Positions 17,082-20,000 of a stretch of 30,428 nt of DNA are shown here, one piece after another. The notes under the pieces are model-generated. The model saw only the letters and a program-made list of their open reading frames with translations, searched no databases and had not been told where the DNA came from. How positions within the stretch are numbered: the first letter of the stretch is position 1; every line of letters begins with the position of its first letter. The stretch spans positions 1 through 30,428 of the forward strand of contig JAODGP010000023.1 in assembly GCA_025464345.1 (NCBI GenBank), written 5' to 3'. The position numbers and the translations under genes are program-made. This DNA comes from Methanosarcinales archaeon (GTDB lineage Archaea > Halobacteriota > Syntropharchaeia > Alkanophagales > Methanospirareceae).

Positions 17082-20000
17082 ATGAGGACGAAGAGAATAA
17101 AGGCGATAAAATTCGGACTGTTATCACCGAAGGAGATAAGGAAGATGAGTGCTGCGAAGGTGATAACAGCGGACACTTACGGTGAGGATGGCTTTCCAAT
17201 AGAGACGGGACTGGTGAATCAGCGGCTGGGTGTTATTGATCCCGGGCTGAGGTGTAAGACCTGTGGGGGTCGTATGGGTGAATGTCCGGGGCATTTTGGT
17301 CATATCGAGCTCGCTGCACCGGTCATACATGTGGGATATGCAAAACTGATCCATAAGATACTGAGTGCCACGTGTCGCAGGTGTGGGAGGTTATTACTGA
17401 GCGAGCCGGCGAAGCAGGAGTATCTGGCGAAGATAGAAGAGCAGAAGGAGAAGCAGGCAGATATAAACGAGGTGGTGAAACAGGTCTTCAAGGAGGCGTC
17501 GAAGAACGAGGTGTGCATGTACTGCGGCGATTATTTCAGTATAGATAGCGAGGGTCTGGAGGAGGACCTGGATAAGAGCAGTGTGAGTAGCGAGTTGCGT
17601 GAAAGGATAGAGGACAGAGGCTTCTCTGTATCCAAGAATGCGATACTGCATAGGGAGATAGATCCAGAGCGGCTGTTCCGCTGGGGTGACGTGCCGGGCA
17701 GGGATAATAAGCAGCTGATAGAGTTTCTTGTCCGTGATTTTGAACTCACGTGGGTGAAGAAAGCGAAGATCAGTAAGAAGGATGATAATACGGTGGTGAT
17801 CTCAGCGGGTGCTAAAACGTTGGAGCTTTCGCTCAGTTCGAGGAGAGATTGTGTGAGACTGAATTTTGAGGGTGGGCGTAGTTACGAGTTACCGGTGAAG
17901 AAAGAGGGTATGGCTCTCTTCGTTTACAGCTACCGGTGGGTGATAACTGACACTGATAAGGTTTACATATTGAAGAGGGGCTGGGACAAACTGCTTATAT
18001 ACTGCGGAGAGCGACAGAAGCGGATAAAATACGAGAAACCGACCACCTACAAGGAGATAGAAGAGGATGGGCGAGAGCGGAGATTGATGCCAACGGATGT
18101 GCGTGAGCGGCTTGAGCGGATACCGGATGAAGATGTTGAGGTTCTCGGAATGGATCCCGCGAATGCGAGACCCGAATGGATGGTTCTAACAGTCCTGCCA
18201 GTGCCTCCGGTTACCGCGCGACCTTCGATCACACTGGAGAGCGGGCAGCGGAGTGAGGATGACCTGACGCATAAGCTGGTGGATATAATCAGGATAAACC
18301 AGCGATTTATGGAGAACAGGGATGCAGGTGCGCCACAACTGATAATAGAGGACCTCTGGGAGCTTCTTCAGTACCATGTCAGCACATACTTTGATAATGA
18401 GATACAGGGTATACCACCAGCCAGGCACCGGAGTGGTAGACCTCTGAAGACGATGGCACAGCGGTTGAAAGGCAAGGAGGGGCGATTCAGGGGTTCGCTA
18501 TCCGGTAAACGTGTGAATTTCTCGGCACGAACTGTGATATCACCTGACCCGGACATAGGTATAGACGAGGTGGGTGTGCCGGTAGATGTGGCGAAAGAAC
18601 TGACGATCACCGTTAATGTGACGGAGCGGAATTTAGAAGCGATGAGGGAGCTTGTGCGTAATGGCAAAAACCATCCAGGTGCGAACTACGCGATAAGACC
18701 GGACGGCAGGAGATTGAAATTGATGGAGAGCAATTACGAGACTCTCGCTTCGGAATTGGACATAGGATGGAAGGTGGAACGGCACCTGATTGATGGTGAC
18801 ATCGTTCTCTTTAACAGGCAGCCATCTCTGCACAGATTGAGCATAATGGCACATTATGTAAGGGTGATGCCGGGCAGGACTTTCAGGTTGAATCCGGCAG
18901 TGTGCCCACCGTATAATGCCGATTATGACGGTGATGAGATGAACCTGCACGTCTTGCAGACAGAGGAGGCGCGTGCGGAGGCGAAGATTCTGATGGAGGT
19001 ACAGCGTAATATCATATCACCCAGATTCGGCAGACCGATAGTCGGTGGTATACACGATTACATCACAGGTCTGTTCATGCTCACGTGGGGCGATAAGAGA
19101 TTCAGCAAGGAAGAGGCACTGGACATATTGAGGAACATAGACTTTGATGAGCTGGGGGAGCCCGCGGGAATCGGTGAGGATGGACAGCCTTACTGGACCG
19201 GGAAGCAGATATTCAGCGTGATTTTGCCTGAGGGGTTGAATCAGGAGTTCCGTGGCAAGGTGTGCAGGAAATGCACGGAGCAGGGCTTGATATGCAGGAA
19301 GGAAGACTGCCCCAATGAAGCGTACGTGCATATAAAGAATGGCAGGCTGATAAGTGGTGTGATAGATGAAATGGCAATAGGCTCCTTTAAAGGTATGATA
19401 ATAGACCGGATATATCGTAAACTGGGCGATAGTACCGCCAAGGAGTTTATAAGCAAAGCTTCTCGACTCGCAATCAATTATATACTCCTTGCTGGGTTCA
19501 GTTTCGGGATAAGTGATGAGGATATACCGGAGGAGGGTAAGGAGCAGATACGGGACGAGGTAATAAAGGAAGCGGAGGAGAAGGTGAAGCGGCTGATAAT
19601 GGCATACGAAGCGGAGGAACTGGAGGCGTTACCGGGCAGGACGCTGGAGGAGACGCTGGAACTGCTGATAATGCAGGAACTCGGTCGTGCGAGGGACGAA
19701 GCGGGCGAAATAGCGGGCAGATATCTGGGCATAGAGAACCCAGGTGTGCTCATGGCGAGATCGGGCGCTCGTGGCTCCATACTCAATTTAACGCAGATGG
19801 CAGCCTGTGTGGGTCAGCAATCAGTGAGAGGCGAGCGGATAATGAGGGGCTATCATGGCAGGACATTACCGCATTTCAAACCCGGTGATCGGAGTGCAGA
19901 TGCTCGTGGCTTCGTTCGGTCTTCATTCAAGGACGGGCTATCTCCAACTGAATATTTCTTCCATGCCATGGGCGGGCGAGAAGCGCTGGTGGACACCGCA

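Follow-up and report, generated by a model that had tools for sequence, protein, structure and literature searches.

The RpoA' subunit of RNA polymerase encoded in the window, as we call the 30,428-nucleotide stretch of archaeal DNA analysed here, carries an insert in its clamp head that is very probably the fossil of two nested, non-autonomous, MITE-like transposons built for translation. The host gene, rpoA' (Rpo1N), spans positions 17082..20210 (+ strand, as are all features given below) and encodes 1042 aa according to the ORF list and its translation. Pfam detected Rpb1 domains 1–5 in the product (E 2e-98 to 2e-27), which can be aligned to solved Rpo1N chains and retains the NADYDGD loop, the catalytic loop. 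The insert interrupts the RNA_pol_Rpb1_1 domain and itself has no Pfam match. An alignment of 29 RpoA' N-termini placed the first CxxC of the clamp-head zinc site at C98-R-R-C101 (17373..17384). C145-M-Y-C148 (17514..17525; translation and alignment) is the second CxxC of that site; the insert lies directly downstream of it, at what we call site 2. From what is known of Rpb1 and Rpo1N, we take the cysteines of these motifs to be zinc ligands. In insert-free RpoA', as judged from alignment with 28 RpoA' of relatives, the region reads unbroken as C-x-Y-C-G-E-x-Q-x-x-I-K-[YF]-[ED]-K-P; at the same stretch, the RpoA' of the window reads CMYCG-D, followed by residues Y151 to Y307 and then by host sequence. 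The HMMER match between Pyrococcus furiosus Rpo1N and the window protein fell into two parts, and both 'YCG' copies of the latter aligned to a single H-C-G (at about residues 149–151 of 8CRO_A, deduced from the equivalent residues 210–212 of 3QQC_A), which is expected of a duplication. Translation, Pfam and alignment therefore confirm what an earlier note on this DNA had described, an in-frame insert of ~160 aa after CMYC in a 1042-aa RpoA', and the flanks quoted in that note are present where it placed them.

The same note had treated the insert as one element. Matches to two profiles, A and B, correct this to two nested elements, in which an outer module A of ~70 aa (residues 151–196 and 283–307) is split by a module B of 86 aa (197–282). 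The outer element is preceded by one copy of its target-site duplication, TGCGGCGA, in codons C148-G149-D150 (17523..17530); this copy is followed by the left arm of A, consisting of T and Y151–E196 (17531..17669), which matches HMM positions 3–48 of the A profile and aligns with the A-only RpoA' of four other genomes (G009, G021, G018 and G007). Next comes the inner B, a compact alpha/beta domain of 86 aa (R197–Y282; 17670..17927), which the B profile detected at E = 1e-27. The right arm of A, S283–Y307 (17928..18002; A profile, HMM 48–72), ends in a conserved L-x-I-Y and is followed by the downstream copy of the duplication, TGCGGAGA, in codons C308-G309-E310 (18003..18010), after which normal RpoA' resumes. 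The two copies are identical at 7 of 8 positions, and their 9-nt register is the one seen for duplications around A and B elements elsewhere. The insert is thus bounded by a duplication, as had been proposed, with a length of ~8 nt rather than 15. When the insert is read as two nested elements, the TAC shared before both copies is a coincidence, formed by the tyrosine of the host CxYC and by the conserved terminal tyrosine of the module. Module A alone occupies site 2 of RpoA' in sister genera, in which a second A module is found at site 1, just past the first CxxC. The A(B) composite is also present in a FlaI/T2SSE ATPase of another genome (G013), and comparison of the two profiles shows A and B to be homologous (hhalign 92.7%, E = 4e-7).

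The element ends in the window have decayed. At the 5' terminus of A, 7 of 13 positions agree with the consensus GTATTTGTTTAGC; 7 of 13 agree at each end of B; and overall the ends in the window score 7–8 of 13. We detected no duplication around the inner B of RpoA'. The case for the window consequently rests on homology to better-preserved copies. Family B elements measure 262 bp and encode 87 aa (87 aa / 261 nt in most copies), with 90 codons added when the 8-bp duplication is included, and family A elements measure ~211 bp and encode ~70 aa. Both families share terminal inverted repeats of 13–14 nt, GTATTTGTTTAGC ... GCTAAACATATAC, which match each other at 12 of 13 positions and are kept in 42 B copies and in A copies; the end-pair pattern of the elements is GTATTTGTTTAGC / GCTAAACA[TA]ATAC. 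These ends are conserved across copies from ANME-1, ANME-2 and Methanosarcinales, although the interiors are only ~30–75% identical in amino acids. The exact 12-mer of the ends occurs 7–19 times per relative genome, compared with 0–1 for the control. The codon and duplication statistics overstate independence, since the copies are related by descent: terminal synonymous codons are fixed relative to interior codon usage (binomial p 1e-5 to 1e-13 for most, 2e-3 for the weakest), B duplications in 33 independent contexts match on average at 4.36 of 9 bases compared with 2.57 expected (a value reached by 0 of 20,000 permutations, with the signal confined to the 9-nt register), and A duplications in 16 contexts match at 4.31 compared with 2.29 expected (p < 5e-5, again with the signal in that register only). 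We also observed exact 8-bp duplications, AATAGTAA and TTTTGTGT, and a non-coding 172-bp element in a relative (L125) that shares these ends and is flanked by a perfect 8-bp duplication, AACCTTTT. At the insertion in AlaRS, the loop varies too much for a duplication to be recognized.

The inverted repeats are themselves coding, with Y-L-F-S specified by one repeat and K-L-N-I-Y by the other. Frame +1 was the sole open frame in 42 of 42 copies, and the residues F, W, G, L, W, K and L are invariant in the modules. Nesting of B within B was found at 8 or more different positions (that is, at least 8), and nesting of A within A was also seen. A word-indexed homologue search with the insert region returned three RpoA' orthologues only, and a full HMMER library search with the B profile matched 2201 protein clusters at E <= 1e-3. 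Among 93 B representatives, 49 Pfam families were found. Hosts of B include AlaRS, pentapeptide, CARDB/DUF11, DUF7255, asparaginase, STAND ATPase, RFC, SIR2 and FlaI-like ATPase proteins, CRISPR RAMPs, surface proteins, and phage tail and baseplate proteins, to which AlphaFold DB added PurP, TBP and an IS4-like transposase; hosts of A include AglB, GT2, PQQ and LVIVD propellers, and TPR proteins. The suggestion in the earlier note of a mobile, frame-preserving coding element is upheld by this occurrence of the modules in frame in unrelated hosts, with short flanking duplications, conserved terminal inverted repeats and nesting. Its expectation of paralogous copies held in relatives, which carry up to 14 B copies per genome, and failed in the source genome (90% complete, 116 contigs), where we found 1 B copy, that of RpoA', and 4 A copies. 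In data that come nearly entirely from metagenome-assembled genomes, A and B belong together in a single MITE-like superfamily that is found in ANME-1 and in other methane-cycling archaea.

Structure prediction was confident for B (AF2 pLDDT 95.7, pTM 0.84) and for the insert in the context of RpoA' (pLDDT 86–94), and the two termini of the folded domain are probably adjacent. No solved fold relative of B was found: the best Foldseek hit against the PDB had an E value of 0.39 (frataxin, TM 0.41), and the best VIA-align hit against 48,161 chains had a Z of 5.0, under the noise level of the tool. Pfam and NCBIfam models gave no match to the insert or to the consensus modules, and a feature search of the ESM Atlas gave just one weak match (0.76).

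In the few genomes that were searched, solitary repeat ends neighbour housekeeping genes, and no autonomous element bounded by these inverted repeats turned up near them. Pairs of repeat ends 1–1.8 kb apart were rejected as autonomous elements, as they enclose housekeeping genes. The abundant IS4/5-like insertion sequences (12 DDE_Tnp_1 loci, few genomes) were likewise set aside as partners, as their ends differ (CATGCGTGTTCGG); a repeat-like 13-mer inside them, GTATATGGTGAGC, was discounted because these insertion sequences have their own CATGCGTGTTCGG ends. The B-bearing 692-aa ORFs of one genome (G270) are not transposases.

The distribution of the elements is patchy: they are present in 26 of 301 genomes in the phylum, and within the family in 19 of 38. 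AlaRS carries B in G009 only, compared with 30 other AlaRS genes, and site 1 of RpoA' is filled in one genome (G023) and empty in a congener (G011). On the tree of the RpoA' core, gains and precise losses are not distinguishable. The RpoA' insert recurs whole and with its reading frame preserved in every other genome of the genus (6 of 6) and in every genome of a second genus (4 of 4). Its dN/dS is 0.13–0.28 for B and 0.04–0.26 for A (with one short-segment outlier of 0.62), compared with 0.02–0.10 for the RpoA' core. The copy in the source genome is an old relic, immobile and subject to purifying selection, and the elements are dead in that genome, given that their ends have decayed and that other B copies are lacking. 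The dN/dS of 0.13–0.28 gives weak support to the description of the RpoA' copy as 'domesticated'.

These data bear on the possibility that the clamp-head module was exapted and now works in RNA polymerase, for example by binding a transcription factor, nucleic acid or protein. The clamp head of Rpo1N/Rpb1 lies beside the DNA channel, which is a position suited to this proposal. An acquired function would also fit the retention of the insert across two genera (all 7 genomes of the genus and 4 of 4 of the second), its purifying selection, with dN/dS far under 1, and the conservation of both copies of the duplicated Cys-Gly in every insert-bearing RpoA'. However, purifying selection would be expected anyway, if only to preserve the folding of an inserted domain and prevent it from doing harm, and selection on the insert is looser than on the RpoA' core. 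RpoA' is normal in most genera of the family, the same modules are found in cytoplasmic, membrane and extracellular proteins that have no common feature, and neither fold nor sequence revealed kinship to any binding domain. We consider exaptation unlikely, though not remote.

An ordinary lineage-specific insertion domain, arising by duplication or illegitimate recombination (domain shuffling) and without a transposon, is improbable. Such insertions are common in the large subunits of RNA polymerase, the source genome has no other B copy, and no transposase partner was found in the few genomes searched, all of which this explanation would accommodate. It does not account for DNA ends that are inverted repeats conserved at synonymous sites, for 8–9-nt duplications in a single register, for exact unit lengths, for copies within copies at many positions, or for a non-coding element that shares these ends and has a perfect 8-bp target duplication. 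Still less probable, to the point of being nearly dismissible, is an intein or another element that is removed after transcription or translation to leave a normal mature RpoA'. Genes for archaeal RNA polymerase subunits are known intein hosts, and the insert is close in size to mini-inteins. However, no Hint or intein family matched at E <= 1, the fold is not Hint-like, and the module runs from Y/F-L-F to I-Y, while the residue after it differs between copies (C, D, S, K, N, L, T and others). The junctions have no conserved nucleophile or His-Asn, in agreement with the earlier note, which had seen no intein hallmarks. Furthermore, selection at the protein level shows that the insert is translated. 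An assembly artefact or chimeric contig, which a fragmented metagenome bin of 116 contigs might suggest, is barely conceivable, as 10 further, independently assembled genomes have the insert at this codon at 71–94% identity, with its frame intact in both genera, a substitution pattern of coding sequence and purifying selection.

Our preferred explanation is that the insert derives from two nested transposons. In the clamp head of RpoA', a family A element would have entered the codons just past the zinc knuckle, CxYC, duplicating ~8 bp of target, TGCGGNGA, and a family B element would later have entered a hairpin loop of A. Mobilization may have occurred in trans through a putative DDE-type transposase. 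Because the combined length of element and duplication is divisible by three and only one frame of six is open, a correctly placed insertion, in the right frame and orientation, would add a self-folding, beta-rich domain and leave the host protein intact. The RpoA' copy would then be a tolerated passenger on the clamp-head surface and not a part with its own task. Whether methane-cycling archaea host a transposon superfamily that neutralizes its own gene insertions at the protein level, with repeats that serve as codons for two terminal beta-strands and a body that serves as a self-closing domain, is an evenly balanced question. If they do, the elements could colonize and stack in almost any surface loop, including those of RNA polymerase, aminoacyl-tRNA synthetases and oligosaccharyltransferase, and would represent a third strategy next to self-splicing introns and inteins. 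They would also supply new protein domains continually, and some of these, the clamp-head copy for example, may serve a use.

In-frame selfish repeats were previously known mainly as short palindromes of Rickettsia. The elements described here make up a transposon family with a real self-folding domain, present in thousands of proteins of methane-oxidizing and methanogenic archaea, and indicate that insertions of this kind can become established even within the core of an essential enzyme. They account for a class of housekeeping proteins in ANME genomes that are puzzling for being 'modular' or over-long, and they call for caution, as the inserts distort annotation, orthology and phylogenetic markers, including RpoA and RpoB. 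They also provide a natural map, already put to the test, of the loops in essential enzymes that tolerate insertions of 70–160 aa and a compact, insertion-tolerant domain of possible use to protein engineers, and they make the birth of new domains from mobile DNA testable. Full-text literature searches returned no description of these elements, and a comparative-genomics paper on ANME (PMC9012536) makes no mention of them.

Several known systems share features with these elements. Lineage-specific insertions in RNA polymerase (SI1–SI3 of bacterial beta/beta' and sandwich-barrel hybrid motifs) and rpoA inteins likewise place an extra domain in a surface loop and leave the catalytic core intact. 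However, insertions of the SI1–SI3 type are not known to be dispersed in unrelated proteins or to have transposon ends, archaeal rpoA inteins splice out, and the A/B module has no fold match to inteins or to RNA polymerase insertions. With classical prokaryotic MITEs, A and B share terminal inverted repeats, target-site duplication, small size, multiple copies, the lack of a transposase and insertion polymorphism; by contrast, classical MITEs are non-coding and intergenic, whereas A and B are ORFs under protein-level constraint that lie mostly inside genes. Rickettsia palindromic elements (RPEs) are palindromes of ~100–150 bp that encode short peptides (Ogata et al. 2000/2002, via PMC10969869). 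According to that summary, RPEs resemble the archaeal elements in being small and non-autonomous, in lying in frame in many unrelated and often essential genes, in being translated as an extra surface peptide, and in comprising several related families. The palindromic body of ~100–150 bp that is a trait of RPEs was not seen in the archaeal elements, for which inverted symmetry was examined at the ends only; no kinship in sequence between the two is expected. Unlike RPEs, the archaeal elements are 211–262 bp long with classical terminal inverted repeats and an 8-bp target duplication, encode a confidently folding globular domain of 70–87 aa, nest in one another, and have methane-cycling archaea as their hosts.

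The rpoA' gene (17082-20210, forward strand) is an open reading frame encoding a protein of 1042 aa with all Rpb1 domains present in Pfam searches, and it stands in the order rpoB, rpoA', rpoA'', with rpoB unsplit. Pfam domain 1 of RpoA' is broken around residues 150-310, a stretch in which we found no Pfam family at E ≤ 1. In an alignment of 29 RpoA' N-termini, taken from the window's genome and its relatives, the insert-free proteins showed a continuous C-x-Y-C-G-E-x-Q-x-x-I-K-[YF]-[ED]-K-P. The window's protein is interrupted there, reading CMYCG-D and then Y151 to Y307 before the host motif resumes. 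The match between solved Pyrococcus furiosus Rpo1N and the window's RpoA' was also split in two, with both 'YCG' copies aligning to the same H-C-G. Together with the 29-gene alignment, this demonstrates that the insert in the clamp-head motif described in an earlier note on this DNA is real. Misassembly, which that note had raised against its own observation, was rejected, as the insert, diverged to 71-94% identity, occupies the same codon in every one of the genus's six other genomes and in four from a second genus. Also in the window, rpoB (13736-17080) is a single ORF of 1114 aa, split B'/B'' genes being expected in most methanogen-related lineages, and the translated catalytic loop of RpoA' (18915-18935) reads NADYDGD, not NADFDGD.

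The RpoA' insert is a nested composite, A(B), in which an outer module (A) is interrupted by an inner one (B, 17670-17927; R197-Y282, 86 residues). In four genomes from three other genera the site holds only about 73 residues, which align to 47 residues at the start of the window's insert and 25 at its end. These four genomes and one more have a second A copy of about 73 aa directly after the first zinc knuckle, CRKCGRVLL. Consistent with nesting, whole-genome profile searches matched A to RpoA' residues 151-196 (profile positions 3-48) and 283-307 (positions 48-72), with B matching between the two halves (E = 1e-27). The modules are homologous (hhalign 92.7%, E = 4e-7), B being A with about 22 extra residues, and both start (Y)-L-F-S and finish L-N-I-Y. 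RpoA'' (20207-21553, 448 aa), which has an N-terminal extension of about 100 residues ahead of its Pfam Rpb1_5 match, matched neither profile.

B alone was predicted with a pLDDT of 95.7 and a pTM of 0.84 from just 20 sequences, as a short N-terminal strand, two helices and a six-stranded sheet. Searches of solved structures gave no significant relative: the best Foldseek E was 0.39, and the best VIA-align Z, 5.0, fell short of the noise level stated for that tool. When RpoA' residues 1-483 were modelled, confidence was high across both the clamp head and the entire insert (pLDDT 86-94), and strands of A continued into strands of B. The secondary structure and the nesting suggest that the module termini are adjacent. 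The alignment to Rpo1N, with established RNAP anatomy, places the insert on the clamp head next to the zinc site, where, as the earlier note proposed, it could give RNAP a new binding surface.

B has a canonical length of exactly 87 aa. Its profile, searched against 1.84 billion representative proteins, matched 2201 clusters at E ≤ 1e-3, of which 1627 passed E ≤ 1e-10. The B-bearing proteins ranged from 133 to 5438 aa with up to 12 copies each, and a sample of 93 contained 49 different Pfam families, including CRISPR RAMPs, baseplate J, replication factor C, asparaginase, SIR2, KAP NTPase and GAF. AlphaFold DB clusters sharing the B fold (TM ≥ 0.9) were annotated as PurP, 'TATA-box-binding protein (modular protein)', IS4-like transposase, lipoprotein and others. 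In relatives of the window's genome, B occurred in alanyl-tRNA synthetase (AlaRS), a FlaI/T2SSE-type ATPase (as an A(B) composite), a pentapeptide-repeat protein (two copies), CARDB/DUF11 surface proteins, DUF7255 proteins, small ORFs and a 4164-aa ORF. Hosts of A were AglB in the window's genome, a family-2 glycosyltransferase, PQQ and LVIVD beta-propellers, a TPR protein and a small membrane protein. The A module of the oligosaccharyltransferase AglB/STT3 (contig C27, 3860-4078; locus L112, 647-4480) lies at residue 1072, between the core and peripheral domains, with LHG before it and LYG after it, and at least six relatives have orthologous copies. Genomes with B carried 1 to 14 copies and made up 26 of 301 in a sample of the phylum and 19 of 38 in the family. 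Named contigs with B belonged to ANME-1 (Methanophagales), ANME-2, Methanogaster, other Methanosarcinales and Methanothrix. On L139 (JAGMEL010000379.1), a contig that binning assigned to a WOR-3 bacterium, B is 76% identical to a copy from ANME-1, reflecting either misbinning or transfer.

The modules have the hallmarks of transposons. The DNA ends of 42 B copies were nearly constant, (G)TATTTGTTTAGCTGG... and ...AAGCTAAACATATAC, and formed inverted repeats with 12 of 13 positions identical, whereas the interiors shared only about 30-75% amino-acid identity. The ends of A copies were the same. The terminal codons TAT-TTG-TTT-AGC and AAG-CTA-AAC-ATA-TAC were strongly enriched over module interiors: for example, one terminal leucine was TTG in 14 of 25 copies (6% in interiors), another was CTA in 25 of 31 (21%), and isoleucine was ATA in 24 of 26 (23%), with binomial p values against interior usage of 1e-5 to 1e-13 for most codons and 2e-3 for the weakest. 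The exact terminal 12-mer occurred 7-19 times in relatives, compared with 0-1 for the reversed control. We compared the 9 nt before and after 33 non-redundant B copies with shuffled pairings (20,000 permutations). On average 4.36 of 9 positions matched, as against 2.57 after shuffling, a value reached in 0 of 20,000 permutations, and at least 7 of 9 matched in 21% of copies (0.4% expected). Registers of 6, 8, 10 and 12 nt gave no signal. Flanks of A behaved similarly (16 contexts, mean 4.31 versus 2.29, p < 5e-5). For B, positions 1-7 or 1-8 matched and the ninth did not, and nested copies had clean duplications, AATAGTAA on either side of G-TAT...TAC and TTTTGTGT likewise. With its 8-bp duplication, the 262-bp unit therefore amounts to 90 codons. 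The earlier note had named the same module in unrelated hosts, with short flanking duplications, as support for mobility, and this is what we observed.

All 42 B copies have a single open frame of six. Complete B copies lay inside B in many proteins (profile positions 24, 31, 37, 39-41, 47, 50 and 58), once in triple form, and A also nested in A. The A-in-A protein, of about 420 aa and without a Pfam match, occurs at L108 (G011:C49), L091 (G019:C81) and L105 (G018:C24), the last of which looks like a recombined single copy keeping the outer tail KMRKFFARKGDGKLNIY. Empty sites were found as well. AlaRS contained B in one genome, the ANME-1 Methanophagales MAG G009, and lacked it in 30 others, including one with 85% identical flanks; RpoA' site 1, after the first knuckle, was filled in one species and empty in another of the same genus. 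The AlaRS module (L052, contig C63, residues 437-525) is near-consensus and sits in a loop of the catalytic domain.

Non-coding relatives share these ends. In the ANME-1 relative G015 (C84), L125:2528-2699 is a non-coding palindromic MITE of 172 bp with the module ends GTATTTGTTTAGC...GCTATACAAATAC, in which G-TATTTGTTTAGC...GCTATACAAATA-C stands between perfect 8-bp duplications, AACCTTTT. Similar units of 80-160 bp were seen at L127, L128 and L130. Solitary TATTTGTTTAGC 12-mers occur in intergenic DNA of G015 and G019 (L115-L134, for example L122:2460-2471), adjoining a TATA-like run, GGTTATAAAAAGGAGCTAAACAAATA, and a conserved motif, ACCACAAGATTACACAGATTTCCACGAG, in varying orientation to neighbouring genes. 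They may be element ends, element-borne promoters, or both.

In the window, the flanks of the outer A, TGCGGCGA (17523-17530) and TGCGGAGA (18003-18010, both forward strand), sit in the exact register of other copies' duplications. The duplication proposed in the earlier note thus holds for these 8-mers and loses its extra 'TAC', which on one flank is the tyrosine codon of the host CxYC and on the other that of the module's terminal residue. The RpoA' copy is an old, immobilized relic, because A and B both have decayed ends (only 7-8 of 13 positions agree with the consensus), the inner B no longer has a duplication around it, terminal 12-mers are essentially absent from the genome, and a search of that genome, as the note had suggested, returned no other B copy and three further A copies, all old (AglB, a 349-aa ORF and a 160-aa membrane protein). 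It remains in frame and under purifying selection, with pairwise dN/dS of 0.13-0.28 for B, 0.04-0.26 for A (one short-segment outlier, 0.62) and 0.02-0.10 for the flanking core. The RpoA' core tree placed both A(B) genera early, as successive branches, and the genera with A at both sites formed one clade among insert-free genera. Several gains could account for this history, or, with greater economy, precise losses, which recombination between the duplicated 8-mers could produce.

The spread of these elements is most likely explained by a transposase supplied in trans, combined with survival in one frame. Such a transposase would act on the ends common to A, B and the non-coding relatives, making cuts staggered by 8 bp, and insertions into genes would survive only in the single frame and orientation that reads through. 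The element would supply a domain that folds by itself and closes on itself, so the host protein would be barely disturbed. The ends would encode the two terminal strands, which would be why all three kinds of element share them. In the few genomes searched, we found no such transposase near the solitary ends or among the IS4/5-like elements, and the latter were rejected as the autonomous partner because their ends differ from those of the modules. One apparently active IS of about 1.4 kb with a DDE_Tnp_1 transposase (L167, L168, L171 and L175 in G270, G015 and G215; copies 95% identical) has the ends CATGCGTGTTCGGATAAG...CTTAACCGAACACGCATG, unrelated to those of the modules.

No Pfam or NCBIfam model covers A or B, and we found no description of them in full-text literature searches or in the main ANME comparative-genomics paper (PMC9012536). 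Among described systems, Rickettsia palindromic elements (reviewed in PMC10969869) come closest, resembling A and B in spreading in frame through unrelated genes. They differ in size and hosts, in having a palindromic architecture where A and B have terminal inverted repeats and target-site duplications, and in being without the globular fold.
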